Shown one piece after another: positions 4,296 through 24,000 of a stretch of DNA of 24,000 bases (its first letter is position 1; each line of letters starts with the position of its first letter). Position numbers and translations under genes: made by a program. The notes under the pieces are model-generated. The model searched no databases. It was not told the origin of the DNA and saw only the letters and a program-made list of their open reading frames with translations. This DNA is from an uncultured Thermodesulfobacteriota bacterium (lineage in GTDB: Bacteria > Desulfobacterota > B13-G15), in contig CAYVAU010000012.1 of assembly GCA_964448445.1 (NCBI GenBank), positions 7,925-31,924 of the forward strand, written 5' to 3'.

Positions 4296-5767
4296 GCCCT
4301 TTTCCTCATGGGTGGAAACAGGATCACGTCCCTTATGGAAGGGGAATCCGTAAAGAGCATGACGAGGCGGTCAATGCCTATACCTTCCCCGGCCGTAGGG
4401 GGCATGCCGTACTCGAGGGCGATCAAAAAGTCCTCATCCAGGAAGAACTCCTCCTGTTGGACCCCCCGCCTTTTGAGCTGCTGCATGAACCTGGACCTTT
4501 GATCCTCGGGATCGTTGAGCTCGGAAAAACCATTGGCTATCTCCCTGCCGTATATAAACAGCTCAAAACGCTCGACCAGCCCCGGATCATCATCCTTCCT
4601 CCGGGCAAGGGGCGAGACCTCAACAGGGTGATCGATGATGAAAGTGGGTTGGATCAAATGGGGTTGAACGACCTCCTCAAAAAGGGCATTTATGAGCTCC
4701 CCATGGGATTCGTCACCCCTTAGCTCGATCCCCAGCTCGCGGGCCTTCCTCAAGGCCGCCTCCCTCTCCCTCAGGACCGATTCATCAAGGCCAAACTCAA
4801 GGAGCGACTCCCTCATGGGGATCCTCGGCCAGGGAGGGGTCAGGTCGATCTCGGTTCCCTGATACTTAATCTTCAGGCCACCACAGACCTTCTGGGCGAG
4901 TTCGCAAAACAATTCCTCGGTGAGGACCATCAGGTCTTCATAGGTGCTGTAGGCCTGGTAAAATTCGAGCATGGTGAACTCGGGGTTGTGGAGGCTTGAG
5001 ATGCCCTCGTTCCTGAAGTTCTTCCCTATTTCGAATACCCTCTCGAAACCCCCGACAACCAACCTTTTGAGGTAAAGCTCGGGGGCTATCCTCAGGTAAA
5101 GCTCCATTTCAAGGGCATTGTGGTAGGTCTTGAAGGGCCTTGCCGCCGCCCCACCGGGTATGGGTTGCATCACAGGGGTCTCCACCTCCAGGAAGTCCCT
5201 CTGCAGCAGAAACTCCCTTATGGTCTGGATGATGAGGCTCCGCTTCCTGAAGGTCTCCCTGCAGGGGGGATTGACAATCAGGTCCAGGTAACGCTGTCTG
5301 TAGCGGATCTCCACATCGGTCAGCCCGTGCCACTTCTCCGGAAGGGGCCTCAAGGACTTGCACAACAATTTGAATTGGTGCACTTCTAAGGTGAGCTCGC
5401 CCGTGCGGGTTTTAAACGGCCTCCCTCTGACCCCAATGATATCCCCTATGTCGAGTCTCTTGAAGAATTTAAAGGGACCCTCCCCCAGGATGTCCCTGCG
5501 CAGGTATATCTGGATCCGCCCCTTTCTGTCCTGAATGTGACTGAAGACCGAGCCGCCGAAATCCCTAATGGCCATGATCCTTCCCGCCAGGGTGAACTCC
5601 TCCCTGACCTCTTCCAGGTCCCTGGGGTCGAGACGGCCGAAGCGACGCCGCAGGTCCTCTGAGGTGGTTTCGGCCTTGAAGTCGCGGGGATAAAGGTCGA
5701 TCCCCTCCTCTCTGAACTTTTGGGCCTTCTCCCTCCTCTGCTTGAGGACCTGACTCTCGGAAGCCAT
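4292..5767 (-). CDS. lysS: Lysine--tRNA ligase, class II
   Basis: 491-aa ORF with an N-terminal OB-fold anticodon-binding region and class II motifs (FRNEGIS, the GIGIDRLVMLFT motif-3 region). It has a 4-nt overlap with lolC. Confidence 0.95.
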   Translation of the reverse strand: MASESQVLKQRREKAQKFREEGIDLYPRDFKAETTSEDLRRRFGRLDPRDLEEVREEFTLAGRIMAIRDFGGSVFSHIQDRKGRIQIYLRRDILGEGPFKFFKRLDIGDIIGVRGRPFKTRTGELTLEVHQFKLLCKSLRPLPEKWHGLTDVEIRYRQRYLDLIVNPPCRETFRKRSLIIQTIREFLLQRDFLEVETPVMQPIPGGAAARPFKTYHNALEMELYLRIAPELYLKRLVVGGFERVFEIGKNFRNEGISSLHNPEFTMLEFYQAYSTYEDLMVLTEELFCELAQKVCGGLKIKYQGTEIDLTPPWPRIPMRESLLEFGLDESVLREREAALRKARELGIELRGDESHGELINALFEEVVQPHLIQPTFIIDHPVEVSPLARRKDDDPGLVERFELFIYGREIANGFSELNDPEDQRSRFMQQLKRRGVQQEEFFLDEDFLIALEYGMPPTAGEGIGIDRLVMLFTDSPSIRDVILFPPMRKRA

Positions 5768-8117: not shown

Positions 8118-8333
8118 CCACTCAAGGGGGAGTTCCTCCTTCAATCCCTCCAAGAACGCCACAAACTCCCCTTCAAGCTCGACTGGCACATAGAGTTCCA
8201 TTTCCCCGCGGGAGGCATCCACGGTCCTTGAAGAGGCCAATCCCTCATAGGATTCGAGCAAGAAGTTGAAAAACGCCATTTCCTCCTTCGGTACTTTCAC
8301 CCGATAGATCAAGGTATCCCTTTCATAATCCAT
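8076..8333 (-). CDS. Small DUF4911-like protein (85 aa)
   Basis: The internal ATG at 8333 gives MDYERDTLIYRVKVPKEEMAFFNFLLESYEGLA.... This resembles DUF4911 family members as I recall them. The longer 151-aa reading would run antisense through the GGDEF gene's N-terminus. Confidence 0.5.
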   Translation of the reverse strand: MDYERDTLIYRVKVPKEEMAFFNFLLESYEGLASSRTVDASRGEMELYVPVELEGEFVAFLEGLKEELPLEWSKLDLPESPQGLP

Positions 8334-8347
8334 GGGAAAAATGATAC

Positions 8348-8367
8348 AAAATTTGCGTTCAAATTTT
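8348..8367. promoter_or_regulatory. Perfect 8-bp inverted repeat AAAATTTG-cgtt-CAAATTTT in the AT-rich divergent intergenic region. It is a candidate operator.
   Basis: Read directly: 8348-8355 AAAATTTG and 8360-8367 CAAATTTT. It lies between the DUF4911 start (8333) and the preferred GGDEF-gene start (8383). Confidence 0.25.
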
Positions 8368-8382
8368 AAAAGGAATTTCTCG

Positions 8383-9891
8383 ATGGAGAAATTAAAGAAT
8401 TTGCTGAAGGTCCTTGTCCTTCCTTTCCTTCGCTCCATGGGGAGGGTGGAGCTCCTTAGGGCCATAATCGATTCGATCCCCGATGGGGTTATAGCGGTGG
8501 ATAGAGAAGGGAGGGTGATCCTCTGGAACAAGGCGGTCAGTCAAATGACCGGGGTGGAGGAGAAGGAGATCTTGGGGAAGGGCGATTATGCTTATGCCGT
8601 TCCCTTTTATGGTGAAAAGAGGCCCCTCCTTGTGGACCTCATCTTGAGGGGCGAGGGGGAGTGGAGGAGGCGGTACGAGGGGTTTAAGCGGAGGGGAGAT
8701 ACCATAACCGCCGAGGGTTTTGCCCCTGCAGCCTACGGAGGGAGGGGGCTTTTCTTCTGGACCCTGGCTGCCCCCATAAGGGATGAGGAGGGGAGGATCA
8801 TAGGGGCGGTTCAGTGCATAAGGGACATAGCCGAAAGGAAGAGGATGGAGGAGGAGCTCCGCTGGAGGAGCTTCCATGATCCCTTAACCGGTGTTTACAA
8901 TCGTACCTATTTCGAAGAGGAGCTGAGGAGGCTTAAGGTCAGCCGCTCCTATCCGGTGAGCCTGATCCTCTGCGATGTGGACAACCTCAAGATGATCAAC
9001 GATTTCCTCGGCCACGACCAGGGTGACGAGGTCTTGAAGCGCATCGCAAAGGCCATATCGGACTCGGTGAGGGCATCCGATGTGGTGGCCAGGGTGGGAG
9101 GGGACGAATTCGCGGTGCTTTTGCCCCGGACCGACAGCCGGACGGCCGAACAGGTGGCCGAGCGGATCCTTAAGGCCGTAGAGAGGGAAAGGGAAAGGTC
9201 CCCCGAGCTCCCTCTGGAGCTTTCGGTGGGTTATGCCACAGCCAACGATCCCTCCAGGACCCTGGAGGACCTCTACCGTGAGGCGGATGACATGATGTAC
9301 CGCAACAAGCTCGTGAGGGGATTGAGTCCCAGGAGCTCGGTGGTGCATGTGCTCAAGGCCGCCTTGAGGGAAAAGGACTTCGCCGCCGAGGGACATATAG
9401 AGAGGGTGAAGAGGTTCAGCCTGCTGCTGGGCGAAGCCCTCGATCTCTCCCGGCCGGAGCTCGAATTGCTGGAACTCCTGGCTGAGGTCCACGACATAGG
9501 CAAGATCGGGGTCCCAGATGAGGTCCTCTTCAAACCCGGAAGGCTCACCCCGGAGGAGTGGGAGGAGGTGAGGAAGCACCCTGAGATCGGGTACCGTATT
9601 GCCCTTTCCTCTCCCGAGCTAGCGCCTGTGGCCGAGTTGATCCTGCAACATCACGAGCGCTGGGATGGAAAGGGATATCCGCAGGGTCTTAAGGGAGAGG
9701 GGATAAACCTTTTGAGCCGCATAGTCGCCATAGCCGATGCCTTTGACGCCATGACCTCGGACAGGCCCTACCGTCGGGCCCTCTCCTGGCAGGAGGCCCT
9801 CGAGGAACTGAAGAAGGGTGCGGGGACCCAGTTCGATCCCAAGCTTGTCGAGGTCTTCCTCTGGCTTATCGGGGGGAAGGGGGATGCGTAG
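8383..9891 (+). CDS. PAS sensor with GGDEF diguanylate cyclase and HD-GYP phosphodiesterase domains (c-di-GMP turnover)
   Basis: PAS segment: LLRAIIDSIPDGVIAVDREGRVILWN. GGDEF domain with I-site: RASD-VVAR-VGGDEF at 9070-9111. HD-GYP: HDIGKIG ... HHERWDGKGYPQGL. The start is ambiguous. ATG 8383 follows AAAGGAA, while the ORF-track start 8332 would overlap the divergent start codon. Confidence 0.85.
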   Translation: MEKLKNLLKVLVLPFLRSMGRVELLRAIIDSIPDGVIAVDREGRVILWNKAVSQMTGVEEKEILGKGDYAYAVPFYGEKRPLLVDLILRGEGEWRRRYEGFKRRGDTITAEGFAPAAYGGRGLFFWTLAAPIRDEEGRIIGAVQCIRDIAERKRMEEELRWRSFHDPLTGVYNRTYFEEELRRLKVSRSYPVSLILCDVDNLKMINDFLGHDQGDEVLKRIAKAISDSVRASDVVARVGGDEFAVLLPRTDSRTAEQVAERILKAVERERERSPELPLELSVGYATANDPSRTLEDLYREADDMMYRNKLVRGLSPRSSVVHVLKAALREKDFAAEGHIERVKRFSLLLGEALDLSRPELELLELLAEVHDIGKIGVPDEVLFKPGRLTPEEWEEVRKHPEIGYRIALSSPELAPVAELILQHHERWDGKGYPQGLKGEGINLLSRIVAIADAFDAMTSDRPYRRALSWQEALEELKKGAGTQFDPKLVEVFLWLIGGKGDA

Positions 9892-10405: not shown

Positions 10406-11106
10406 AGGCAGTTTTCGCGGCCTTAAGTTTCATGACCATTTTGCCCGTCCCTCCAGGAGGGGCTTTTCACAAAGCCCCCGCTTTCTTTCCCCTGGTGGGG
10501 GCCATTCTTGGAACGATCCTCTGGGCGATATCCCTCCCCTTGGGTTTGCTCTGGGGGGAGGAATTTTCCGCCTTGGGGATGGTGCTGGGGCTCTCGATCC
10601 TCACCCGGGGGCTTCATCTGGATGGCCTTGCGGATTCAGTGGATGCCCTTTTAGGCCCGAGGGAAAAGGCCCTCGAGATAATGCGCGATCCCCATATCGG
10701 GACCTTTGGAACGCTGGCCATTGTGGGGGTGATCCTGGCGAAGTTCGTCCTACTGCTGAACCTCGGGAGGGACTGGCATGCCCTTTTGCTCTTTCCGACC
10801 CTCGGAAGGATGGCAGCTCTTTTGCCCATGTACAGCCTCCCCTATCTCAGGGGAGAGGGGAAGGTCAGCCCCTTTCTGCCCATGGGAAAGGGGACCCTCG
10901 GGGTGGGCCTTCTGTTTTCGCTTGCCCTGTCGTCTTTGCTCCTTTGGCCGGTAGGTGTTGTGGTTTTCGGTATTGTCCTTTTTTACGGCCTTGCTGTTTC
11001 CCTTTATTTGAAAAGGAGGCTCGGGGGGGTGACCGGTGATCTATTGGGCGCCACGGTTGAGACGGCCGAGGTGGTGTCCCTGATGACCCTGGGGGTATTG
11101 AGGTAG
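10402..11106 (+). CDS. cobS: Adenosylcobinamide-GDP ribazoletransferase (cobalamin synthase)
   Basis: Polytopic membrane protein. The N-terminus MKAVFAALSFMTILPVP and the segment HLDGLADSVDAL are typical of CobS. It has a 4-nt overlap with cobU. Confidence 0.85.
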   Translation: MKAVFAALSFMTILPVPPGGAFHKAPAFFPLVGAILGTILWAISLPLGLLWGEEFSALGMVLGLSILTRGLHLDGLADSVDALLGPREKALEIMRDPHIGTFGTLAIVGVILAKFVLLLNLGRDWHALLLFPTLGRMAALLPMYSLPYLRGEGKVSPFLPMGKGTLGVGLLFSLALSSLLLWPVGVVVFGIVLFYGLAVSLYLKRRLGGVTGDLLGATVETAEVVSLMTLGVLR

Positions 11107-14224: not shown

Positions 14225-14812
14225 ATGAAACTGGGTATAAAGTTAAGTAACAGGATACTGTCCCTTGCCTTGAAGGAGCTGGTGCTTTCGGCTTTGCCTT
14301 TCGGGTGGAAGGCCTATGAAGGTGATGGTGTGCCCGGGGATGTCGATGTGTTGGTTGTGGATTATCCTGTCCTTTCGTCGGGCAGGGTGTCGGCCTTCAG
14401 GGGGGCTAAGGTCTTGGTCCTTGATACAGGTCTCAGCATGGCGGAAAAAAGAGGCTGTTTTCTCCTTCATGGTGTAAAGGGAGTGGTCCAGCGGGATGCC
14501 GCTTTACCCTTGTTCATTAAGGCCTTGGACAGGGTCAATAAGGGTGAACTGTGGATCGATCAGGAGACCCTAAAGGAGGTGGTCAAGGTTTCCAGGAACG
14601 GGCGCATGGTCCCCAAGGGGGTTACACCAAGGGAAAGGGATGTTCTCTTTTTGGTCTGTAAGGGTTACACCAATAAGGAGATCGCTTCGGAACTCGGCAT
14701 CAGCCTTTCGACGGTAAAGAGCATCCTGGGGAATCTCTATCGCAAGTTCAATGTGTCGGGGCGTTCGATGCTTCAGGCCACTGTGACCCGAGGGCAGCTC
14801 CTCACCCTCTAA
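14225..14812 (+). CDS. LuxR/FixJ-family transcription regulator with an atypical (CsgD-like) receiver-like N-terminal domain
   Basis: C-terminal HTH: TPRERDVLFLVCKGYTNKEIASELGISLSTVKSILGNLYRKF. The N-terminal ~120 aa have an alternating beta/alpha pattern with VDVLVVDYPV, but no acidic pair is evident in the first strand. Confidence 0.8.
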   Translation: MKLGIKLSNRILSLALKELVLSALPFGWKAYEGDGVPGDVDVLVVDYPVLSSGRVSAFRGAKVLVLDTGLSMAEKRGCFLLHGVKGVVQRDAALPLFIKALDRVNKGELWIDQETLKEVVKVSRNGRMVPKGVTPRERDVLFLVCKGYTNKEIASELGISLSTVKSILGNLYRKFNVSGRSMLQATVTRGQLLTL

Positions 14813-15330
14813 GGGGCCTTTAAGGTGAGGGATTGGAGGTTCCTGAAGACCCCGAGGGTCAATCCCCCCATTGGATAGAGGTAAAGTTTGAGACCCGACT
14901 TTCCGGTCCCGGAGATCGTCACCCTTTGGGCCGTATCCTCTGTGATTTCGACCTGGACTCTATTGGCCTTAAAGCCCTCTATCCAGCTCCGCTTCTCCCC
15001 CTCAAGATCGTTCTGGACCAGGTAAACGGCCATATGGTAGACGGTGCAGCGGTCATCCCCTACGGAGGTGATAAGCAGGGAGTGCTGCACCTTGTCCGGT
15101 GTTTGGAAATCGACGGCGAGGCTTCCGGTTGCCCTGTCAAAGGTGGCATACCAGGGGACCCCCTTTGGGACCCTCTGATCGAGGACCAAACGGCAGAGGG
15201 GGTTCATCCCGTTAACTATCTCCGGGGAGAAGCCCTTCTCAAGGAGGGATTCCTCGGGGCCACCCCTAGCATTCCCTGAGGTCAAAAGGGAGAGAATCAG
15301 GGCAAAGAGGATGAGCCTCGCCTTTCCCAT
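14809..15330 (-). CDS. Secreted protein of unknown function (173 aa), last gene of the repeat-protein operon
   Basis: ATG at 15330 overlaps the upstream TAA (TAATG coupling). The ORF-track GTG start is at 15342. The signal peptide is MGKARLILFALILSLLTSGNA. I recognise no family. Confidence 0.6.
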   Translation of the reverse strand: MGKARLILFALILSLLTSGNARGGPEESLLEKGFSPEIVNGMNPLCRLVLDQRVPKGVPWYATFDRATGSLAVDFQTPDKVQHSLLITSVGDDRCTVYHMAVYLVQNDLEGEKRSWIEGFKANRVQVEITEDTAQRVTISGTGKSGLKLYLYPMGGLTLGVFRNLQSLTLKAP

Positions 15331-15782
15331 TACAGTCCCCACGGCAGTGACCTTATGATCTCCTCCACGCCCAGCTGCGTGACCTGGATTATGCTGATGT
15401 TGATGATTAGGTCCGTATCGATGATATTGTTGGACCCTGGAACTTGCACAATCTGGAAGACCCCCCTCGCCCCATAAAATCCTCCTACAGAGGCCTCAAT
15501 CCTCACATTGGACGGAAGGGAGGGGGCAGAGGCGGGTTCTCCTTGGGTCTCGTAGAAGGAATTCCCCAGGGTGTCCCAGTATCCCTCAAAGACGACCGAA
15601 AAGCTCATCCCCATGTACGCACCCCTCATTTCGTCCAGCTCCCCCTCGTCGACGGCCTGAGCGACCACCTCTTCTCCCAGAAAGATCGCCTCTTCAAAGA
15701 TTCGGGGGGAGGAGGCGCGAACTGAGCCAGCCACAAGCATCACCGCCAGCAATGCTCCTATGATCAACAGACAGCCTTTCAT
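15330..15782 (-). CDS. Secreted 150-aa protein carrying one degenerate copy of the N/Q/G core repeat
   Basis: ATG at 15782 follows GGAGG (gaggaaggaggtaaaaATG). The signal peptide is MKGCLLIIGALLAVMLVAGSVRA. The segment GVFQIVQVPGSNNIIDT (15414-15464) aligns to GIVNVNQSVGNMNNQAN. The 189-aa ORF-track extension overlaps the C39 gene and was discarded. Confidence 0.65.
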   Translation of the reverse strand: MKGCLLIIGALLAVMLVAGSVRASSPRIFEEAIFLGEEVVAQAVDEGELDEMRGAYMGMSFSVVFEGYWDTLGNSFYETQGEPASAPSLPSNVRIEASVGGFYGARGVFQIVQVPGSNNIIDTDLIINISIIQVTQLGVEEIIRSLPWGL

Positions 15783-15798
15783 TTTTACCTCCTTCCTC

Positions 15799-16482
15799 TC
15801 AAAACTCACCTGGCGGTCTGAAGGAGCCCCAAGCCCCTGTCCAGTCCATAAGCCCCTTCCATTGGGCCTGCATGATCGGGGCCTTTGGGCGCGTTTCAAG
15901 GGGAAGGGGCGTTGTGGGGGCCTTCTTGTAGACGACGAAAATGACCCCGTTCCATCCCTTCAGGAACTCCTCCATCCTGAGACTCCTGTTCCCCACCGCT
16001 GGATCAGCCAGAAAGACCCTGTTGCTATCTGTACCCTTGAGGACGACAAAGTGCTTGTAACCCCGGGTGTTGAGCAATACGATCACGGGGATCTTGATCT
16101 TTGGGAGATCCTTGGCCTTAATTCTGTAACCGTTGGCCACAAATCCCTTGGAGGATGCGTATCGTTTGAGATCGAGAAGGGAGAATCCCTTCTTGCGGAT
16201 CTTTTCGCGATCCCCTATCTCAAGCATCTCCTTTACGATCTCCCGCTCGGATACCTCCTGGCCGTAGTAATACTTGATGATGGTAGCAAGGGAGGCGGCC
16301 CCACAGCTGAAATCGTAACGCTGGGGGACCACCTTCCTGAACCTGGCCTCCCGCAACGAAACTACTTCCTTCCTCAGATACCCGCCGAAGGGACCCCGAA
16401 CCTTGAGGGATGCCGGATATCCTCCAAAGGGAAGAAGTGCAAGGAAGAGGACTACCGCTGATATCCGGACTCCCCACATCAC
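15799..16482 (-). CDS. Stand-alone periplasmic C39-family cysteine peptidase (bacteriocin-processing peptidase fold), FapD-like in context
   Basis: The signal peptide is MMWGVRISAVVLFLALLPFGG. The catalytic Cys lies in YDFSCGAASLATII (codon 16303-16305). His is in YKHFVVL and Asp is in FLADP. The start is GTG 16482 or ATG 16479, and it overlaps the upstream TGA. Confidence 0.85.
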   Translation of the reverse strand: MMWGVRISAVVLFLALLPFGGYPASLKVRGPFGGYLRKEVVSLREARFRKVVPQRYDFSCGAASLATIIKYYYGQEVSEREIVKEMLEIGDREKIRKKGFSLLDLKRYASSKGFVANGYRIKAKDLPKIKIPVIVLLNTRGYKHFVVLKGTDSNRVFLADPAVGNRSLRMEEFLKGWNGVIFVVYKKAPTTPLPLETRPKAPIMQAQWKGLMDWTGAWGSFRPPGEF

Positions 16483-17093
16483 CTGACCTCCTGCCGCAGC
16501 GAAATCCCCAGCCGGTTGCAGATGGAGTTGTTGTTCCCCGAGGACTGACTGAGGATCCCCACCCCAGAAGCCCCGACGAAGGAATCGGCAATGATATCTT
16601 CCCTCATCCCTCCCCCTTCCGCTACCTGCCCTCGGAGCAGGCGGGGGCTCTCCCTCTCGAGCTCCCTTTCGCTGAGGAGGAGCACCCCTCCTATGGAGCA
16701 GAACATGAAGTTTGACTGATCGTTGAGGTTTCCCGATGATTGATTGACCATAAAGATCCCCTGGGATCCCGAAAAGGACCCGATGATGGAATCCCGGCTC
16801 TGGGAGTTCAGGATCGAGGCGGTGGAACGATCGCGTTGTTGCCGAAGGAAGGCCTCGAGTTCCACAGCCCCCCCTGTCAGGGAGAACAGCAGAAGATTTG
16901 CCTGGTTGTTGAGGGATCCGGAGGCCTGATTGAGGGTGTAAAGACCTTGGTTTTCCGTAAAGGAAAATTGAACCAATGTGCTGCTGGAGGTGTCCGAGGA
17001 GAGGATGAAAGAAGAAGTTTCGAGGCCACTGGAGAGGGCATCCGCTGCCACTGCCACCGATATCACCATTATGAGAATCGCCACCTTGAACAC
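16479..17093 (-). CDS. Secreted 204-aa repeat protein, the shorter and more degenerate paralogue of the two upstream repeat proteins
   Basis: GTG start at 17093, 6 nt after AAGGAGG. The signal peptide is MFKVAILIMVISVAVAA. The three cores are GLYTLNQASGSLNNQAN, GIFMVNQSSGNLNDQSN and GVGILSQSSGNNNSICN. Confidence 0.75.
   Translation of the reverse strand: MFKVAILIMVISVAVAADALSSGLETSSFILSSDTSSSTLVQFSFTENQGLYTLNQASGSLNNQANLLLFSLTGGAVELEAFLRQQRDRSTASILNSQSRDSIIGSFSGSQGIFMVNQSSGNLNDQSNFMFCSIGGVLLLSERELERESPRLLRGQVAEGGGMREDIIADSFVGASGVGILSQSSGNNNSICNRLGISLRQEVR
16515..16946 (-). repeat. Three spaced copies of the 17-codon N/Q/G core inside the 204-aa gene
   Basis: The cores lie at 16896-16946, 16710-16760 and 16515-16565. 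I verified the second by back-translation. Core starts are 62 and 65 codons apart. Confidence 0.8.
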
Positions 17094-17109
17094 CCTTTGC
17101 CTCCTTAGG

Positions 17110-17143
17110 AAAGGGCGGACAGGAGGGATCCTGTCCGCCCTTT
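17110..17143 (-). terminator. Intra-operon GC-rich hairpin between the 276-aa and 204-aa genes, acting as a partial terminator or an mRNA-stabilising 3' structure
   Basis: AAAGGGCGGACAGG (17110-17123) pairs perfectly with CCTGTCCGCCCTTT (17130-17143) around a 6-nt loop. On the minus strand it is followed only by TTTCC and then the SD of the next gene, so the U-tract is weak. Confidence 0.5.
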
Positions 17144-17152
17144 GTGGTTAAC

Positions 17153-17983
17153 TTACCTGGCCCCCATTTCTATGACACTGGGGACGCTCGCCGAGATGCT
17201 GATGATATTGGACTGGTTGTTCATGTTGCCTGAGGACTGGTTGACGTTGACGACGCCGACATTCCCGTTGATAGAGTTGGCGATCGAGTCAAGCCTGACG
17301 GTGCCCCACTCGTAGACCGTATTGCCGGTGCTGCTCTGCCCGAGATCCGCCTCAGATAGCGCCACCAGGGCCTCGCTGGCAACGGCCAGAACTATCTGAT
17401 TTGCCTGGTTGTTCATGTTGCCAACTGACTGATTTACGTTCACAATACCCATGTTATCCAGGATGGAGCCCGAGATCAGGGATTTCTTCTGTGGACCAGC
17501 AGTGTAGTCTTCCACAGCGTCCACGGAATTTCCTCCGTTTACCTGCTGCATCGATGCTTGGGAGTTGGCAAAACCGAGTACCCCTTCACCCTCGGACCAA
17601 GAGATGGCCGCGCTGATGAGGTTTGCCTGGTTGATGGAGTTGCCCACTTCCTGGTTTAGGTTGACGATGCCGGTGTTGGTGTTGACCGAGTCGCTGAGCG
17701 TGGCGGTCCTGTAGATCATGTCATACTGAGGTTTAAATTCATTAGAATACCTCGATACCGTATTTTCGGTTGCGGACTGATTGAGGAGGCTGCTGGCCTC
17801 AGCTCCTTGGTTGCCTTCAACGGCTATATCGACCTTGACCCTGACCCCTTTGTTGATCCTGACCTTCTCGTTGACCGTGACGCTCTTTGTCTTTTCCACC
17901 GTCCCGGTGACATCCAAATCGGCGAGGGCATAGCCCACCGCCCCGAGGAGAAATATTGCTGTAAGTGCCAAAATCTTTTTCAT
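17153..17983 (-). CDS. Secreted 276-aa Asn/Gln/Gly-rich three-repeat protein. It is the candidate major fibre/amyloid subunit (FapC/CsgA analogue).
   Basis: ATG at 17983 lies 8 nt after GGAGG. The signal peptide is MKKILALTAIFLLGAVGYALA. The three cores are GIVNLNQEVGNSINQAN, GIVNVNQSVGNMNNQAN and GVVNVNQSSGNMNNQSN. It contains no Cys. Confidence 0.85.
   Translation of the reverse strand: MKKILALTAIFLLGAVGYALADLDVTGTVEKTKSVTVNEKVRINKGVRVKVDIAVEGNQGAEASSLLNQSATENTVSRYSNEFKPQYDMIYRTATLSDSVNTNTGIVNLNQEVGNSINQANLISAAISWSEGEGVLGFANSQASMQQVNGGNSVDAVEDYTAGPQKKSLISGSILDNMGIVNVNQSVGNMNNQANQIVLAVASEALVALSEADLGQSSTGNTVYEWGTVRLDSIANSINGNVGVVNVNQSSGNMNNQSNIISISASVPSVIEMGAR
17207..17671 (-). repeat. Three spaced copies of the 17-codon core G-[IV]-V-N-[VL]-N-Q-x-x-G-N-x-x-N-Q-x-N in the 276-aa gene
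   Basis: The cores lie at 17621-17671, 17399-17449 and 17207-17257. I verified the first by back-translation. Each is preceded by a [ST]-x-[SG]-x-S-[IV]-x-x-N-x segment. Confidence 0.85.
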
Positions 17984-18006
17984 CTTTTACACCTCCTTTT
18001 AGGTTT

Positions 18007-18819
18007 TTACATGCCGTAAACCGAGCCAGAGATGTTGACGGCGTTGAGCTGGTTGCCCAACACCCCCGCGCTCTGGTTTACCTCGACCACACCCACATTC
18101 TCGTTTATGGATCCGGAGATGGTGGCGGTCTTGGTGGTGTCATATTCCATGAAGCTGTTTCCGGCTACGGCCTGACCGAGATCGGCCTCAGCAAGGGCCA
18201 CAAGGCCGCTGAAGCTGACACCCAAGGTCAACCCATTGCCCTGATTGGAGATGTTTCCGACCGACTGATTGACCATCACAATCCCTGTGTTCGTGTTGAT
18301 GGAACCCGTAATTACGGCATCCCTGTAAAGGATCTGGATGCTATCTATGGTGTTTCCCTCCATCAGCTGGCCCACCGATGTCTGGGCATGGGCAAAGCCA
18401 TAGCCCTCAGCGGGGGGCTCGCCATTGCCATTCGGGGTCCCGCCATTTATGGGTCCATCAACGGCCGCAGAGAGCATGTTCGACTGATTGGCCATGTTCC
18501 CCGTGGCCTGGTTCAGATTGACGATCCCTGCATTATTCAGTATCGAACCAACAACCTCACTCGTCTTTTCAGCACAGTTCTCGCAGGCGAAGTTTCCCCT
18601 CTGGCTCTGATTAAGGACCGCATGGGCCTCGGCAGCCTTCTCTCCTACCACATCCAGGGTCACATCGACAGAAAGGTTCTTCTTTATATTGATGACTTCC
18701 TCGACATTGACCGTCTTCTCCTTTGTCACCGTGCCACTGGCCTCCACATCTGCCAGAGCGGAAATCGCCCCGACAAATAGGAAACACGACGCAATTGCCA
18801 CTACTTTCAATCCATTCAT
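18007..18819 (-). CDS. Secreted 270-aa three-repeat protein, full-length paralogue of the 276-aa protein. It is a candidate second subunit or nucleator (FapB/CsgB analogue).
   Basis: ATG at 18819 lies 5 nt after GGAGG. The signal peptide is MNGLKVVAIASCFLFVGAISALA. The cores are GIVNLNQATGNMANQSN, GIVMVNQSVGNISNQGN and GVVEVNQSAGVLGNQLN. The shared blocks LVAL[SA]EADLGQ and GTV.K.K.V.V show the two proteins are collinear. Confidence 0.85.
   Translation of the reverse strand: MNGLKVVAIASCFLFVGAISALADVEASGTVTKEKTVNVEEVINIKKNLSVDVTLDVVGEKAAEAHAVLNQSQRGNFACENCAEKTSEVVGSILNNAGIVNLNQATGNMANQSNMLSAAVDGPINGGTPNGNGEPPAEGYGFAHAQTSVGQLMEGNTIDSIQILYRDAVITGSINTNTGIVMVNQSVGNISNQGNGLTLGVSFSGLVALAEADLGQAVAGNSFMEYDTTKTATISGSINENVGVVEVNQSAGVLGNQLNAVNISGSVYGM
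18043..18528 (-). repeat. Three spaced copies of the 17-codon core in the 270-aa gene
   Basis: The cores lie at 18478-18528, 18235-18285 and 18043-18093. I verified the first by back-translation. Confidence 0.85.
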
Positions 18820-18908
18820 CCTAACCTCCTTTCAAAAGGTTTTTGATTAAATCGCCGAATCCCATAATTCATCCAAAGGCCTTTACATCACCTCCTTTCT
18901 TTTTGTTT

Positions 18909-19205
18909 TTACCACCCCACTATCTTCAAAACATTTACCTGAACGTTGCCGCATCCAGAAGATATGTTGTCAATTTCCATGCTCCTTTTGATCTCATCCC
19001 ACAGAACGATTTTACTGCTCTCTGACATAATGAGGGTGATATTGCCTTCGCCTTGTCCCCATATCTGTGACAATTCATCAGAAGTGAGCGGATAATTGAC
19101 AACTTCAAAAGGAATCCCTCCATCAGAAAGAGCCTTCGATGTACCACAAAATAGACACAAACAAAAGCATACAATAACACAAACAATCCAGTACCTGTGA
19201 TGCAT
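18909..19205 (-). CDS. Putative small secreted protein (98 aa), first ORF of the operon
   Basis: ATG at 19205 lies 14 nt downstream of the sigma54 -12 element and has no SD. The hydrophobic N-terminus MHHRYWIVCVIVCFCLCLFCGTSKA is unusually Cys-rich. The ORF is AT-rich relative to its neighbours, so coding status is uncertain. Confidence 0.4.
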   Translation of the reverse strand: MHHRYWIVCVIVCFCLCLFCGTSKALSDGGIPFEVVNYPLTSDELSQIWGQGEGNITLIMSESSKIVLWDEIKRSMEIDNISSGCGNVQVNVLKIVGW

Positions 19206-19219
19206 GGTTTAAAATGATC

Positions 19220-19234
19220 GCAATTAGCATGCCA
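19220..19234 (-). promoter_or_regulatory. Sigma54 (RpoN) -24/-12 promoter for the repeat-protein operon
   Basis: The minus strand reads TGGCATGCTAATTGC, against the consensus TGGCAC-N5-TTGC. The GG and GC dinucleotides have exact spacing. The site is in an intergenic AT-rich region, and a sigma54 activator gene lies about 1.1 kb away. Confidence 0.65.
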
Positions 19235-19288
19235 TTGGGAAATTTTGCTGTGTTTTCATGAGGAGTGAAGGAACGGAAGAACAGAAAT

Positions 19289-19305
19289 TGTAAAGGATTT
19301 TTACA
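19289..19305. promoter_or_regulatory. Candidate enhancer (UAS) site 1: palindrome TGTAAAGGATTTTTACA (TGTAAA-N5-TTTACA)
   Basis: Read directly. Its centre is roughly 88 bp upstream of the predicted sigma54 transcription start. It is the inverted copy of site 2. Confidence 0.5.
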
Positions 19306-19358
19306 CCCTGAACTTGACAATGTGCTTTGAATCTGCAAATTTCACGAAAGGTAAAAGA

Positions 19359-19375
19359 CGTAAAAATCCTTTACA
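19359..19375. promoter_or_regulatory. Candidate enhancer (UAS) site 2: CGTAAAAATCCTTTACA, reverse complement of site 1 at 16 of 17 positions
   Basis: Read directly. Its centre is roughly 158 bp upstream of the predicted sigma54 start. It abuts the SD (GGAGG, 19376-19380) of the divergent OM-barrel gene. Confidence 0.5.
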
Positions 19376-19386
19376 GGAGGTAAGAA

Positions 19387-20361
19387 ATGGTAAAGTTTAG
19401 GTTGGGAGTGATAGTTTTTGTGGTCTTGGTCTTTTCGGTGTTTGGCGGTCCTTTAATGGCCCAGGAGTCCGGGGAGAAGAAGCCGGCTGAGGCCCTTTTG
19501 GCCGAGCAAGGGGGGGTGCTTTTGCCCAAGGGCGCGTTGGTCCTTGAGCCCTCCATAAAGTACAGCCATTTTTCGAGGCATCGCATTGCCATCTCCGGTT
19601 TTTCGATCCTTGAGGCGATAGTCATAGGGCGGATAGAGGTGAGGGATGTGAAGAGGGATATCCTTCAGTTTTCCCTGACGGGCCGTTATGGCCTTACCAA
19701 TCGTTTGGAACTTGAGGCCGAGGTCCCTTATTTGTTCGTGCACTATCGGGATCTGAGGAGGGCCGAGGGTGATGGTGGGCCCTACAAGGTTAGCGACAAC
19801 GACATCGGGGATGTGGAAGGGGGCATCTATTATCACCTGATAAGGGAGAAGGGGTGGGTGCCCGATATAGTGGTGAACTTGAGGGTGAAGGCCCCTACTG
19901 GGAAGGACCCCTATGAGGTCGAACGCGAGGGCAATAGATTAAAGGAACTTCCCACCGGCAACGGCCACTGGGGCCTATCGGGGGGCTTTACCATGGTTAA
20001 GGCGAGTGACCCCGCAGTTTTCTTTGCGGGCCTTAACTACCAGTGGAACATAGAGCGCGATGTGGGCAAGGGTTATGGGAAGATCGATCCCGGCGACAGC
20101 ATCGAGTACAACCTCGGCATGGCCTATGCCCTAAGTGAGCGATTTTCCCTCTCCACGTCCTTTCAGCAGCGCATAACCTTTGAGACCGAACAAAACGGCC
20201 ACAAGGACCCGGAGACTTATATGAACGTGGCTTCTGTGAATTTTGGCCTGAATTACTCCCTCTCTAAAACGGCGGGTTTGAACATCAATGTGGGGATCGG
20301 GCTGACCGAAGATTCCCCGGATTTCGAGGTGACCCTCAGCGTGCCCCTCAGGGTGTTTTAG
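19387..20361 (+). CDS. Outer-membrane beta-barrel protein (transporter-like). It is the candidate export channel for the repeat proteins (FapF/CsgG analogue by context).
   Basis: ATG lies 6 nt after GGAGG. The signal peptide is MVKFRLGVIVFVVLVFSVFGGPLMA. Amphipathic strands alternate throughout, and the C-terminus is LSVPLRVF with a terminal Phe. The family call is from pattern only. Confidence 0.75.
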   Translation: MVKFRLGVIVFVVLVFSVFGGPLMAQESGEKKPAEALLAEQGGVLLPKGALVLEPSIKYSHFSRHRIAISGFSILEAIVIGRIEVRDVKRDILQFSLTGRYGLTNRLELEAEVPYLFVHYRDLRRAEGDGGPYKVSDNDIGDVEGGIYYHLIREKGWVPDIVVNLRVKAPTGKDPYEVEREGNRLKELPTGNGHWGLSGGFTMVKASDPAVFFAGLNYQWNIERDVGKGYGKIDPGDSIEYNLGMAYALSERFSLSTSFQQRITFETEQNGHKDPETYMNVASVNFGLNYSLSKTAGLNINVGIGLTEDSPDFEVTLSVPLRVF

Positions 20362-21815
20362 TCCTTACTCTGGATCCTGTAGCGCCTCATGAGGTTGTAA
20401 ACGGTGGGGCGGCTCACACCGAGGATTTTTGCCGTGCGGGTGATGTTGTAGTTGGAGGCCTTAAGGGCCTGAAGGAGGCTCTCCTTCTCGATCCTCTGCC
20501 TGATTTCCTTTATGCCGGAAGGCCTCTTCGGGGCCTCAGGGGCCTGGATGGACAGGTCCTCAGGTCGGATCACCTCCGATTCGGAGATGAGCAGGGCCTT
20601 GCGGATCTTGTTTATCATCTCCCTGACATTGCCCGGCCAGTGGTACTGCATTATGGCCTCAAGGGCCTCCTTGCTGAAGCGCTTCTTCGGACCGGGTTGA
20701 TCCTCCTGGAGCTTCTTCAAAAAGTAAGTGGCCAAAATGACCTTGTCCTTTCCCCTCTCCCTCAGAGGGGGGAGTTCAACGGTTACAACGCTCAAACGGT
20801 AATAGAGGTCCTCCCTGAAGCGGCCCTCCTCGACCTCTTCCTCCAGGTTCCTATTGGTTGCGGCGATGATCCTCGTATCGACTCTCCTGGTGGTCCTTGA
20901 TCCTATCCGCTCGATACTGCCATCCTCGAGAAACCTCAGCAATTTCGCCTGCAGGGCAAGGGGCAGTTCCCCGATCTCGTCCAGAAACAGCGTGCCACCG
21001 TGGGCCTGTTCCACTTTGCCCTTCCTTGCGGTGTAAGCCCCGGTGAAGGCCCCCCGTTCGTAGCCGAAAAGCTCGGCCTCTAGGAGGTTTTCCGGGATTG
21101 CGGCGCAGTTTATGACCACGAAGGGCTTGTCGCGCCTTGGGCTCCTTTCGTGGATGGCCCTTGCCGTCAATTCCTTCCCCGTACCGGTTTCGCCCAGGAT
21201 GAGCACGGGAACATCAGTAGGGGCCACTTTCCTTATCAGGGAGAAGACCTTGAGCATGGCCTCGCAGGTCCCCACGAACTCCTCGTCCTCCTTCTCGCCT
21301 TTGTGTTCAAGGGCCCTGTCCACATAGGGGAGCAGTTGCAGGCAGAAATCGCCGTTTAGGTCCTTGAAGCGCCTCTTTAAACGCTCCCAAAGGGTGTCCT
21401 GGATGTGCCTTTGGAGATAATCCTGCTGGTTGAAGCAGAGCAGAAGCTTACAGTTGGGACACCGCAGGAGCAGGACCGTTGGCAGGGAGGTATTGCAGTA
21501 GGGGCAGGATTCAAACCCCTTCTCGGGCAACCCATCCCTTATCATGGACCAGAGGCCTACCAGTTCGTTCACATCGCGAAAGACGAAGGACACCGCCCCC
21601 TCTCCCCCCTCCCTCCTCAGGAACCTGACCCTTAGCGATAGCCTCCTTCCCCTCTCGTCGGAGAAGTGGAGAAGGCCGAACTCCCCCGGGGGGAGGTTCC
21701 CCTTGAGCAGGGCCCCTCCGAGGCTTACGTTGCACACCGTCACCGCAAAGAAACCGTTTTCCCCCTCAAGCTGGCCAGGCCAAGAACCCCTGATCCTAAC
21801 GTCCAATCTCGCCAT
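20358..21815 (-). CDS. Sigma54-dependent transcriptional activator with an N-terminal PilZ domain and a Zn-ribbon (PilZ, CxxC-CxxC, AAA+, Fis-type HTH)
   Basis: PilZ motifs: RLDVR (21795-21809) and NVSLGG (21714-21731). Zn-ribbon: CPYCNTSLPTVLLLRCPNC. Walker A: GETGTGKE. Sigma54-contact loop: ERGAFTGA. C-terminal HTH: NITRTAKILGVSRPTVYNLMRR. Confidence 0.9.
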   Translation of the reverse strand: MARLDVRIRGSWPGQLEGENGFFAVTVCNVSLGGALLKGNLPPGEFGLLHFSDERGRRLSLRVRFLRREGGEGAVSFVFRDVNELVGLWSMIRDGLPEKGFESCPYCNTSLPTVLLLRCPNCKLLLCFNQQDYLQRHIQDTLWERLKRRFKDLNGDFCLQLLPYVDRALEHKGEKEDEEFVGTCEAMLKVFSLIRKVAPTDVPVLILGETGTGKELTARAIHERSPRRDKPFVVINCAAIPENLLEAELFGYERGAFTGAYTARKGKVEQAHGGTLFLDEIGELPLALQAKLLRFLEDGSIERIGSRTTRRVDTRIIAATNRNLEEEVEEGRFREDLYYRLSVVTVELPPLRERGKDKVILATYFLKKLQEDQPGPKKRFSKEALEAIMQYHWPGNVREMINKIRKALLISESEVIRPEDLSIQAPEAPKRPSGIKEIRQRIEKESLLQALKASNYNITRTAKILGVSRPTVYNLMRRYRIQSKD

Positions 21816-21934
21816 TGAACCCGATGCTAATCGAGAAGCGCGGAGGGTTCAATTGGCTAAAGGTCCCATGGCGATCGTCCCTTGGTATGAAGGTTGAAAG
21901 CAGGCAGTTCAGCCCTGTATACTTTTTCGGGGTC

Positions 21935-22603
21935 ATGAGGATCCTGCTGGTGGAAGACGAGAGGAAGCTTTCGAGGATCATCAAACAAGGATTGGAGGAA
22001 GAGGGCTATGGGGTGGAGGAGGCCTCCGATGGCGAGGAGGCCCTTTTCCTCCTCAAGGATCGCACCTATGACCTGGTGATTCTCGATTTGATGCTTCCGA
22101 AGGTGGATGGCCTGGAGGTTTTGAAGGAGTTCCGCCGCGAGAAGGGGGGCAGTACCCCCGTTTTGGTCCTCACCGCCAGGGATACTGTGGAAGATGTGGT
22201 GAGGGGTCTTGATGCTGGTGCGGACGATTACCTGACCAAGCCCTTCGCCTTTGAAGAACTGCTGGCCCGGATAAGGGCCCTCTTGAGGAGAAGGAAGGAG
22301 GAGCTGGAGCTGAGGGTGGAGGACTTGGTGCTGGATCTTAGGACCCGCAAGGCTTGGAGGGGGGAGAAGGAGGTGGAACTCACGGCGAAGGAATTCGCGG
22401 TCCTTGAGTACCTCATGAGGAGGAGTGGGGAGATCGTCACCCGTGAGGAGATAGGTTCTTATGTCTGGGGCAAGGATTACGATCCCAGCACGAACATCGT
22501 GGACGTCTACATCAACCACCTCAGGAAGAAGATCGACCAAGGGTTTCCCCGAAAGCTTATCCACACCATAAGGGGAATGGGCTACAGCCTGAGGCCCTCG
22601 TGA
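21935..22603 (+). CDS. OmpR/PhoB-family response regulator (CusR/CopR-like)
   Basis: I chose the internal ATG 21935 (MRILLVEDERKLSRII). The receiver Asp is in LVILDLMLP, followed by TARD and KPF. The C-terminal winged helix contains ELTAKEFAVLEYLM. Confidence 0.9.
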   Translation: MRILLVEDERKLSRIIKQGLEEEGYGVEEASDGEEALFLLKDRTYDLVILDLMLPKVDGLEVLKEFRREKGGSTPVLVLTARDTVEDVVRGLDAGADDYLTKPFAFEELLARIRALLRRRKEELELRVEDLVLDLRTRKAWRGEKEVELTAKEFAVLEYLMRRSGEIVTREEIGSYVWGKDYDPSTNIVDVYINHLRKKIDQGFPRKLIHTIRGMGYSLRPS

Positions 22604-24000
22604 TGTTCAGGACCCTCAGGGCGAAACTGACCCTTTGGTATATGGTTTTGCTCGGGGTAACCCTCTGCTTTTTCAGCGCCTTTCTTTACCTGACCATGGA
22701 AAAGGGGCTCAAGGAGAACCTCGACAACAAGCTGAGGACTGCGGCCCGGGTGCTGGCCGCTTCGGTGTCAAGGCCCCTGGGGCCGGGACCCTCCCTTGCC
22801 GATGTGGAGCGGATCATGAGGGAACACTTCGGCCTGAGGCCGATGGGGAGGTTCGTGCAGATCTTGGACGAGACCGGAAGAAGGGCCACCAATATAAGGG
22901 ATGTGGACATCCCGGTGAGCTTGAGGACCCTGGAGCTCGCCTCAAAGGGCCAGGAGGTCTTCGAGACCGTGAGGCTGAGGGACGGGGGATCGCTGCGCCT
23001 GGTAACCGTTCCCATCATGATCCAGGGAAGGATGCTGGGGATAGTGCAGGTGGGGAGTCCCCTGGACGAGATCCAGGAGGCCCTCGATCAGCTGCTTTTA
23101 GTGCTGGCCATTTCGGTCCCCCTGGTCCTGGTGGTTGCAAGCCTCGGTGGGCTATTTTTGGCCAATCAGGCCTTGAAGCCCGTTGATCGCATCACCCGCA
23201 CCGCCCAGCGCATCGGTTCAGGGGACCTTTCCCAGAGGATCCCCCTTGAAGGGCTTCCGAGGGATGAGATCGGGCGGCTTGCCGAGACCTTCAACGAGAT
23301 GATCGCCAAATTGGAACGCTCCTTTGAACAGATGAAGCGCTTCACCGCCGATGCCTCCCATGAACTTAAGACCCCTCTTTCGGTGCTCAGGGGAGAGGTG
23401 GAGGTGGGCTTAAAGAGGACGAGGAGCCCCGAGGAGTATCGCAGGATCCTCAAAAGCTGCCTGGAGGAGATCACCAGGATGTCCCGCATTGTGGAAGATC
23501 TGTTGATGCTGGCCAGGGCCGATTCGGGCAGTCTCATGCTGCGGAGGGAAAGGGTCAATCTGAGGGATGTAGCCGAGGAGGTCTGGAGGGGCTTTTACCG
23601 GGAGGCCCTGGGCAAGGGACTTCGATTTCACTTCGGCGGCAGGGCCGCGGAAGTGCTGGGGGACAGGGAGAGGTTGAGGCAGATGATCGCAAATCTGGTG
23701 GACAACGCCATCAAATACACACCTTCGGGAGGCCAGGTGGAACTCACCACCGGGAGTTCCGATGGTGTGGCAATGATCACGGTGAGGGACACGGGCGAGG
23801 GGATACCCCCTGAGGAACAGGAGAAGGTCTTTGAGCGCTTTTACCGGGTGGACAAGGCCCGATCGAGGGAAAAGGGAGGGACGGGGCTGGGTCTCTCCAT
23901 ATGCAAGTGGGTGGCAGAAGCCCACGGGGGGACCATAAGCCTTGAGAGCAACCCAGGGGAGGGATCCACCTTCACGGTAAGGCTGCCCCTTTTGAGATGA
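22603..24000 (+). CDS. Sensor histidine kinase (two TM segments, HAMP, HisKA, HATPase_c)
   Basis: ATG 22603 overlaps the regulator's TGA (TGATG). The ORF-track GTG start is at 22600. The H-box is FTADASHELKTPLS. The N-box is NLVDNAIKYT, and the G-boxes are DTGEGI and GGTGLGLSI. The stop is at 23998-24000. Confidence 0.9.
   Translation: MFRTLRAKLTLWYMVLLGVTLCFFSAFLYLTMEKGLKENLDNKLRTAARVLAASVSRPLGPGPSLADVERIMREHFGLRPMGRFVQILDETGRRATNIRDVDIPVSLRTLELASKGQEVFETVRLRDGGSLRLVTVPIMIQGRMLGIVQVGSPLDEIQEALDQLLLVLAISVPLVLVVASLGGLFLANQALKPVDRITRTAQRIGSGDLSQRIPLEGLPRDEIGRLAETFNEMIAKLERSFEQMKRFTADASHELKTPLSVLRGEVEVGLKRTRSPEEYRRILKSCLEEITRMSRIVEDLLMLARADSGSLMLRRERVNLRDVAEEVWRGFYREALGKGLRFHFGGRAAEVLGDRERLRQMIANLVDNAIKYTPSGGQVELTTGSSDGVAMITVRDTGEGIPPEEQEKVFERFYRVDKARSREKGGTGLGLSICKWVAEAHGGTISLESNPGEGSTFTVRLPLLR

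Follow-up and report, generated by a model that had tools for sequence, protein, structure and literature searches.

Sequence conservation supports a sigma-54 promoter with candidate upstream activator sites ahead of a Fap-like amyloid operon in an uncultured Thermodesulfobacteriota bacterium

The locus described here lies in a 24,000-nucleotide stretch of DNA from an uncultured Thermodesulfobacteriota bacterium (GenBank assembly GCA_964448445.1, contig CAYVAU010000012.1, positions 7,925 to 31,924 of the forward strand), which we refer to as the window and number from its first letter. The locus comprises a minus-strand operon, a divergent outer-membrane barrel gene and, beyond the latter, a gene for an enhancer-binding protein with a PilZ-like domain. 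By matches to NCBIfam and Pfam profiles, the minus-strand genes that follow the promoter form a Fap-like functional-amyloid operon, in agreement with the fibre operon proposed in an earlier note on this DNA. We consider it probable that this operon is preceded by a real sigma-54 promoter and two candidate sites for the neighbouring PilZ activator. The closest named relative is a 'Deltaproteobacteria' metagenome-assembled genome from the Guaymas Basin, with 96% identity in the barrel protein. The features on which the argument is built are the following.

18909..19205, minus strand: first gene of the operon, encoding a secreted 98-residue protein that begins with a signal peptide, carries the conserved motifs GQGEG, ILWDE, GNxQxNxL and GW, and falls in no assigned family.
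19206..19208, minus strand: predicted transcription start (19208) and 3-nt 5' untranslated region (ACC), placed by the -12 convention, with the ATG at 19205.
19220..19234, minus strand: sigma-54 (-24/-12) promoter, TGGCAT-GCTAA-TTGC, assigned by consensus match, conservation in orthologues and first rank in a weight-matrix scan.
19289..19305, no strand: candidate proximal enhancer dyad, or upstream activator site (UAS), TGTAAA-GGATT-TTTACA, centred at -89, from a pattern scan and its position in orthologues.
19314..19342, plus strand: probable sigma-70 promoter of the barrel gene, with a conserved -35 element and an extended -10 element.
19359..19375, no strand: candidate distal enhancer dyad (UAS), CGTAAA-AATCC-TTTACA, centred at -159, from a pattern scan and conservation.
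19387..20361, plus strand: FapF-like outer-membrane barrel gene (NCBIfam FapF, 6.5e-57, far below the equivalog cutoff; Pfam Phenol_MetA_deg).
20358..21815, minus strand: gene for an enhancer-binding protein with PilZ, zinc-ribbon, AAA+ (with GAFTGA) and HTH_8 domains, the candidate binder of the dyads.

The minus strand from 19234 to 19220 reads TGGCATGCTAATTGC, with GG at 19233-19232 and GC at 19221-19220. This is one mismatch from TGGCAC-N5-TTGC with exact GG-N10-GC spacing, just as the earlier note had it in proposing a near-consensus RpoN element. A consensus match by itself is not significant in the window, where three matches with at most one mismatch compare with an expectation of 1.03 and 10 of 100 shuffles gave as many; the other two, at 10811 and 11803, are intragenic. 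The case for the promoter comes from comparison with loci fetched via the barrel protein (3 from reference genomes and 64 from metagenomes) and from a second set fetched via the activator alone, of which L068-L073 are discussed below as an out-of-sample test. In 16 non-redundant loci the homologous small signal-peptide gene is immediately preceded by a GG-N10-GC element with a score of 5-6 of 6 for the flanking consensus; GG, A(-22), TT and GC are invariant or nearly so, and the N5 spacer varies freely. The element is kept with a divergent barrel gene, with one upstream that reads the same way and with one located elsewhere, and it recurs in the independently fetched activator loci. The scan for RpoN sites suggested in the earlier note was run with a weight matrix built from 15 orthologous promoters, the window's own clade left out; it gave the promoter the highest score of all 47,962 window positions (20.2 bits, within the training range), with the second-best hit (8339) having no GG. 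Conservation of the -24/-12 bases around a variable spacer, before the same operon in about 20 divergent loci, identifies 19220-19234 on the minus strand as what we take to be a genuine sigma-54 promoter driving the Fap-like amyloid operon.

One-mismatch matches do arise by chance about once per 24 kb, and here the ATG is so near that a canonical leader is impossible. Both points would suit a fortuitous or vestigial element, with the operon using another promoter and the dyads serving a sigma-70 activator. We regard this as very improbable. GG and GC are invariant at exact spacing in the 16 loci while the spacer varies, and such matches are too rare in the background (81 over the 781 kb of strand scanned, or about 1 per 10 kb on each strand) for chance to put one inside a 6-nt interval relative to the ATG at every locus. 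Moreover, a generic scan found no sigma-70-like promoter on the operon strand, and a gene for a GAFTGA activator is adjacent. At -12, TTGA replaces TTGC in two lineages, L026 (about 2,825, minus strand) and L071 (about 6,790), with TGGCACGTTTCTTGA and AGGCACATTTATTGA; it would be an unusual variant if the two promoters are functional. An initial motif match in L026 was rejected as lying inside a coding region, the likely real promoter being the one with TTGA.

The two dyads read TGTAAAGGATTTTTACA (19289-19305) and CGTAAAAATCCTTTACA (19359-19375). They are reverse-complementary at 16 of 17 positions, forming an inverted repeat with 16-nt arms of 100% complementarity, and their centres, 19297 and 19367, are 70 bp apart; coordinates and letters agree with the two palindromes of the earlier note, whose distances of about 88 and 158 bp upstream of the start become -89 and -159 with the start predicted at 19208. 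Both dyads lie within about 80-200 bp upstream of the -24/-12 element. In contrast to the promoter consensus, the dyad is significant within the window, with two matches at up to three mismatches against 0.05 expected and none of 100 shuffles reaching two.

Position and half-sites are conserved among relatives. The proximal dyad, with the consensus (T/C)GT(A/C)A(A/G)-N5-TTTACA, begins 66-71 nt upstream of the T of TGG (centre about -84 to -89) in 13 loci (the window, L001, L007, L009-L016, L024 and L025), or 11 of 14 when redundancy is removed. Only the promoter-proximal half-site TTTAC(A/C), ending at -50 to -55, is kept in L027, L034, L069 and L071. The distal site is conserved in L001, L007, L009, L010 and L011, 69-78 bp beyond the proximal one, and a second site lies at -232 in L014-L016. 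Across the intergenic region, relatives at 60-68% barrel identity (L007, L009, L010 and L011) have a mean column identity of just 64%; invariant in the six-sequence alignment are the -24/-12 bases, the half-sites of both dyads, a CTTGACA, a TGC-nA block and the Shine-Dalgarno (SD) sequence of the barrel gene. The dyad spacers differ by lineage (GGATT, GAATT, AGATT, GCAAG and AAACG), and half-sites that stay fixed while spacers diverge are the footprint expected of protein-binding half-sites. Counted at 11 or more of 12 half-site positions over 390 kb, dyads occur at 4.49 per kb in the 260-nt zones upstream of these promoters and at 0.031 per kb elsewhere, an enrichment of about 145-fold, so that within the sequence examined they are locus-specific and not the dispersed repeat against which the earlier note had cautioned.

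Between paired sites, spacer identity falls from 5/5 in the window to 0/5 in L010 and L015. By this comparison the exact inverted-copy relation is a lineage-specific trait, and the half-sites alone appear to matter. The same observation bears on the idea that the palindromes have a role in RNA, whether by forming hairpins or through long-range pairing of the copies, or that they are a dispersed repeat. If co-transcribed, the two copies could pair at -23.8 kcal/mol (z = -3.6), but the predicted transcripts do not contain both, single hairpins are weak (-1.7 kcal/mol), and the spacer complementarity that is perfect in the window is found there only, with no covariation maintaining the pairing. 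An Rfam search gave no matches. An RNA-level role was rejected on the missing Rfam match, the weak hairpins and the unconserved pairing; with the concentration of dyads at these promoters also considered, we hold this explanation as a whole to be extremely improbable.

The format of the dyads is familiar from other enhancer-binding proteins. NifA recognises TGT-N10-ACA and NtrC a 17-bp dyad, TGCACC-N5-GGTGCA, both with Fis-type helix-turn-helix (HTH) domains. The resemblance to a NifA site remarked on in the earlier note holds in so far as the window has a dyad in a TGT...ACA frame, but the frame is TGT-N11-ACA, one base longer; on this ground both CRP/FNR and NifA sites were rejected as the identity of the dyads. 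As with NifA and NtrC, the dyads lie 80-160 bp upstream of the -24/-12 element, and their 17-bp 6-5-6 geometry is that of NtrC, whereas the inner AAA/TTT of the half-site is particular to the family found here and the sensors of the two known proteins are GAF (NifA) and REC (NtrC) domains. Additional repeats were seen in some relatives: direct TGTAAAG repeats with 11-12-nt phasing, about -80 to -130 from the promoter, in L012, L024, L025, L027 and L034, and arrays of four to five TTTACA at 9-10 nt in the AT-rich lineages L033, L037, L069 and L071. These repeats hint that several dimers may bind cooperatively on the same face of the helix.

The candidate binder is encoded next to the barrel gene, on which its own gene converges. 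It matches Sigma54_activat at 2.4e-74, has GAFTGA, a CxxC...CxxC zinc ribbon and an HTH_8 domain with the recognition helix SRPTVYNLMRRY, and begins with a PilZ-like domain in which the motifs R3LDVR7 and N29VSLGG34, of the RxxxR and (D/N)xSxxG types, are intact. An alignment of 21 orthologues shows conservation of RxxxR, (D/N)x(S/G)xxG, the CPYC...CxxC zinc ribbon, GAFTGA and SRP(T/S)xY in the HTH_8 helix. The Pfam PilZ profile was matched by 12 of 14 N-terminal domains, with a best value of 4e-15, and a PDB profile search with the domain returned chains of 4i86 (named cellulose synthase 1) and 4q63 (uncharacterised Lpg0364), which we take to be PilZ domains. A homologue search with the N-terminal 198 residues gave no match, the domain probably being too divergent for the word index. 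The intact RxxxR and (D/N)xSxxG motifs make cyclic di-GMP (c-di-GMP) the likely signal for the PilZ domain.

A linked activator gene with both GAFTGA and a DNA-binding domain is thus present in the window, and in about 30 loci a gene of this type lies next to barrel or Fap-like genes, the arrangement varying. Full-length relatives are numerous and carry generic names throughout, among them those of cultured Thermosulfurimonas, Geomonas, Geothermobacter and Desulfuromonas, and our literature searches found no paper characterising a PilZ-containing sigma-54 activator. Six loci reached through the activator show how promoter and half-sites are arranged.

L073, Syntrophales, Fap-like operon: sigma-54 element TGGCACAACCCTTGC; ATG 12 nt after the GC; TGTAAA-N6-TGGACA at -69 to -52.
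L071, Thermodesulfobacterium, Fap-like operon: element resembling -24/-12, with TTGA at -12; ATG at 16 nt; one TTTACA, which ends at -53; HTH the same as in the window.
L069, T. dismutans-like, Fap-like operon: sigma-54 element TGGCACGCACCTTGC; ATG at 16 nt, in an uncalled small open reading frame (ORF); TTTACA array ending at -55.
L072 (6200-9280), Nitrospiraceae, next to GGDEF and cellulose synthase genes: three sigma-54-like promoters with leaders of 37-45 nt and an SD; TTTACA ending at -54 and -53 at two promoters and a full dyad ending at -64 at the third.
L068 (9467-10100), Geomonas subterranea, beside a Tad/Flp pilus operon: sigma-54 element CGGCACGCATTGTGC; no small Fap gene; four TTTACA copies, about 11-12 nt apart, upstream of the sigma-54 element.
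L070, Geothermobacter ehrlichii, Fap-like operon: sigma-54 element GGGCACGGCTATTGC; 59-nt leader with an SD; dyads TGTCGG-N5-CCGACA at -70 and TGTCGG-N6-CCGACA at -172, the recognition helix also differing (SRPALYDRFRKY).

It is the activator family, and not the Fap genes, that the motif and its position appear to track, and where the sequence has changed the position is still kept. This supports assigning the two dyads to the protein of 20358-21815 as its putative upstream activator sites. The earlier note had named this protein as the candidate binder, and its linkage in about 30 loci and the passage of the motif to unrelated operons favour that choice. The nature of the targets further suggests that the family comprises regulators of the biofilm matrix.

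The dyads could instead be bound by another factor, either an unlinked regulator or the LuxR/CsgD-like protein encoded at 14225-14812, with the PilZ activator binding elsewhere or acting from solution. A GerE-family, CsgD-like regulator does flank the operon, and a 47%-identical homologue lies beside the barrel gene in L017. That is, however, the only other locus with a LuxR homologue, against about 30 for the activator. TTTACA/TGTAAA elements stand at the same promoter distance beside members of the activator family at Tad and cellulose loci without Fap genes, and in Geothermobacter the dyad sequence changes together with the activator HTH; the 17-bp 6-5-6 format, moreover, fits dimers of Fis-type HTH proteins such as NtrC. 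We judge binding by another factor to be quite unlikely and retain the PilZ activator as the candidate.

The divergent barrel gene offers a second possible target. Its ATG is at 19387 and its SD, GGAGGT, at 19376-19381, with GGAGG (19376-19380) following directly on the distal dyad; the abutment described in the earlier note is therefore real in the window, but it is confined to the window's own clade. The TTGACA hexamer at 19314-19319, which was also described there as lying between the two sites, is followed by a 17-nt spacer ending in TGC (TG at 19334-19335) and by AAATTT at 19337-19342. In the alignment the invariant CTTGACA (19313-19319) is followed after 14 nt by the TG(C) of the invariant TGC-nA block and then by an nAnTnT hexamer; in L012, L024 and L025 the same TTGACA precedes TATGTA or TATAAG at 17-18 nt. 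We read TTGACA as the probable -35 element of the barrel gene's own extended -10 sigma-70 promoter, which a generic promoter scan of the window did not call because the -10 is weak. This arrangement predicts a barrel transcript start near 19349, which would place the distal dyad at about +10 to +26 in the barrel leader and the proximal dyad just upstream of the -35. Occupancy by the activator may modulate the barrel gene in either direction, and co-regulation of barrel gene and operon is plausible. The barrel and activator genes overlap by 4 bp at their stop codons (20358-20361), which leaves no room for terminators between them.

A precedent exists in FleQ, a c-di-GMP-responsive enhancer-binding protein for which, in the account given by PMC9207406, two sites flank the sigma-70 promoter of pel in P. 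aeruginosa (Baraquet et al. 2012). That account lends some precedent to an effect of the activator on the barrel gene; unlike FleQ at pel, the activator considered here would have a sigma-54 promoter as its main target and a PilZ domain as its sensor. Together with the conserved TTGACA and extended -10 between the sites, and with the abutment of the distal site on the SD throughout the window's clade, the same precedent can be turned into an argument that the dyads are mainly operators of the barrel promoter, their distance to the sigma-54 promoter being incidental. This we find unlikely, since the proximal dyad keeps its sigma-54 distance in loci with a non-divergent barrel gene (L013-L016, L069, L070 and L073) and in those whose barrel promoter lies about 100 nt further off (L012, L024 and L025). 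A dual role of the dyads at the operon and barrel promoters would be compatible with these observations.

With C19220 taken as -12, transcription of the operon is predicted to start at 19208. The ATG at 19205 lies 14 nt past the C of the -12 GC and has no SD; the start codon is secure because an in-frame TAA stands two codons upstream and a canonical signal peptide follows. The same geometry, an ATG 12-17 nt after the -12 GC without an SD, is found in 19 of 21 non-redundant lineages, the exceptions being L026, with a 32-nt leader and an SD, and Geothermobacter. Besides the window, it was noted over the loci L007, L010, L012-L016, L022-L028, L033, L034, L037, L069, L071 and L073. The other, non-Fap targets of the activator family have ordinary leaders of 37-45 nt. 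From this geometry we predict a conserved sigma-54 transcript for the first gene that is leaderless or has a leader of 1-6 nt. In L069, the source record's gene caller missed the small first ORF (4383-4715, MSRKIFLTLIG...ILWDE...) after the sigma-54 promoter, an omission explained by a promoter that stands directly against the start codon, and such genes are probably under-annotated.

The best-known comparison is the fap system of Pseudomonas. In P. fluorescens PF07, the RpoN -24/-12 promoter of fapA-E was mapped by rapid amplification of 5' cDNA ends (5'-RACE), and expression requires rpoN and brfA (PMC9207406; PMC13101488). The BrfA gene is convergent after fapF, which is not induced together with fapA-E (PMC9207406), and BrfA senses c-di-GMP (PMC13101488). 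The type of circuit, a sigma-54 promoter and a c-di-GMP-responsive activator over a Fap amyloid operon, is therefore already known. The window has the same convergent activator gene just after the barrel gene and the same kind of promoter before the first gene of the Fap operon; its c-di-GMP signal, from the motifs, and the separate regulation of its barrel gene, from the predicted promoter, would be further likenesses. BrfA is reportedly a REC-AAA+-HTH protein with TGA(A/T)ACACC-type sites; neither that sensor nor that consensus was found here, where the activator has a PilZ domain and a zinc ribbon and the dyads read TGTAAA-N5-TTTACA. The barrel gene comes last in the Pseudomonas operon and is divergent in the window, and the window's first gene encodes a different small protein, without a FapA match, in an operon whose Fap proteins score far below equivalog cutoffs.

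A betaproteobacterial Fap locus, that of Thiobacillus (L003), looks like the BrfA-type arrangement and contrasts with that of the window. Its activator has a REC/FleQ-like N-terminus, its palindrome is TTTGAAACACAC, and its leader is about 80 nt long with an SD, whereas the window's first gene is near-leaderless; at 11868-11960 in L003, the sigma-54 promoter TGGCACGACAGTTGC is accompanied by the upstream palindrome GTGTGTTTCGCGTTTGAAACACAC. As for the sensor, MrkH of Klebsiella pneumoniae is a small PilZ-domain activator of type 3 fimbriae that is sigma-70-dependent and has neither AAA+ nor HTH_8. Like MrkH, the window's activator would couple c-di-GMP directly to transcription of a surface-fibre operon through a PilZ domain, as judged from its motifs; unlike MrkH, it has both an AAA+ and an HTH_8 domain.

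The remaining genes of the operon, and others in the window that may bear on its regulation, are as follows.

18007-18819, minus strand: FapC-like repeat protein, with a strong SD (AAAGGAGG).
17153-17983, minus strand: FapC-like repeat protein, by profile match.
16479-17093, minus strand: FapB-like repeat protein, by profile match.
15799-16482, minus strand: FapD-like C39 peptidase, by profile match.
15330-15899, minus strand: 189-residue operon protein.
14809-15342, minus strand: 177-residue operon protein.
14225-14812, opposite to the operon and at its far end: LuxR/GerE regulator, CsgD-like (NCBIfam CsgD 3e-11, below the cutoff).
8332-9891, 10 kb away: PAS-GGDEF-HD-GYP protein, for making and breaking down c-di-GMP.
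21815-24000, divergent from and adjoining the activator gene: OmpR-type response regulator and HAMP histidine kinase.

Homologues of the 98-residue protein head the operon in many loci, and the rest of the operon (14809..18819, minus strand) has the same gene order in L010, L013, L016, L070, L071 and L073. The profile matches (FapC 3e-19, FapB 1.5e-11, FapD 1.6e-57 and, for the barrel, FapF 6.5e-57) all score far below the NCBIfam equivalog cutoffs, which makes 'Fap-like' accurate and argues against an orthologous fapABCDEF operon; no FapA or FapE profile match was found among the operon proteins. Just after the stop codon of the small gene, at 18883-18900, is a conserved AAAGGAGGTGATG consisting of an SD and a start codon, which opens an ATG-TAA start-stop pair in the window, a 13-codon ORF in L001 and a 4-codon ORF in L010. 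The PAS-GGDEF-HD-GYP gene indicates that the organism uses c-di-GMP signalling. The OmpR-type regulator occurs at the same place in L010 and L011 with 76-77% identity, and with its HAMP kinase it may provide a further input to the locus.

Several observations weigh against a sigma-54 promoter served by the PilZ activator through the two dyads. The PilZ match of the window protein is marginal (20.5 bits for the full protein and 23.0 for the isolated domain, with a cutoff of 22.5), and the LuxR/CsgD-like gene flanking the operon is a second regulator gene. Independent cases of covariation between HTH and half-site are few and have no formal statistic behind them, and in essence a single one, Geothermobacter, is clear. 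The inter-site spacing varies over 69-78 bp, so that the helical phase of the distal site is not kept, and no clear IHF site lies between the dyads and the promoter in the window; near-matches (WATCAAnnnnTTT) occur in some AT-rich relatives. No RpoN is encoded in the window, and an RpoN-box pattern search over the collected loci gave no match; we infer rpoN only from the presence of a GAFTGA activator. Finally, the 5' end is predicted from promoter geometry, leaders as short as 3 nt are unusual at sigma-54 promoters, and full-text literature searches gave no description of leaderless sigma-54 transcripts.

With these points considered, the arrangement can be put together as a mechanism. Dimers of the activator would recognise TGTAAA/TTTACA half-sites 11 bp apart through their Fis-type HTH; once bound, the protein would form oligomers and reach the closed sigma-54 complex by looping, and its GAFTGA loop would use ATP hydrolysis to open that complex. 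Transcription would then start at about 19208, leaving 3 nt ahead of the first gene's AUG, and amyloid production would be tied to the biofilm second messenger through the sensing of c-di-GMP by the PilZ domain. The small secreted protein of the first gene would be translated in a leaderless or short-leader mode, with the fibre subunit genes downstream carrying strong ribosome-binding sites. We speculate that its translation is SD-independent and of low efficiency relative to the fibre subunits.

A broader proposal, which we advance tentatively and as a single joint reading, has four parts: that a widespread, uncharacterised family of PilZ/zinc-ribbon/AAA+/HTH_8 enhancer-binding proteins exists in Desulfobacterota, Thermodesulfobacteriota and Nitrospirota-type bacteria; that its members may read c-di-GMP through PilZ and activate sigma-54 promoters of Fap-like amyloid, Tad pili and cellulose; that they may act through half-sites of the TTTACA type whose position is fixed about 53 nt upstream of the -24 element; and that at amyloid operons the sigma-54 promoter may launch a conserved leaderless mRNA. 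No description of a sigma-54 promoter combined with a conserved leaderless mRNA was found in the literature. What is new here is the activator family with its predicted DNA code and the predicted near-leaderless sigma-54 transcript.

A circuit so far known from one Pseudomonas system would thereby extend to deep-branching anaerobic and thermophilic lineages, with a different sensor (PilZ) and a different DNA code, under an activator family whose control appears to include Tad pili and cellulose as well. A large family whose only annotation is 'sigma-54-dependent Fis family regulator' gains a concrete predicted site, and several of its members are in cultured organisms. With the promoter set against the start codon across phyla, the combination of enhancer-dependent transcription and leaderless translation, which is rarely considered, becomes testable.

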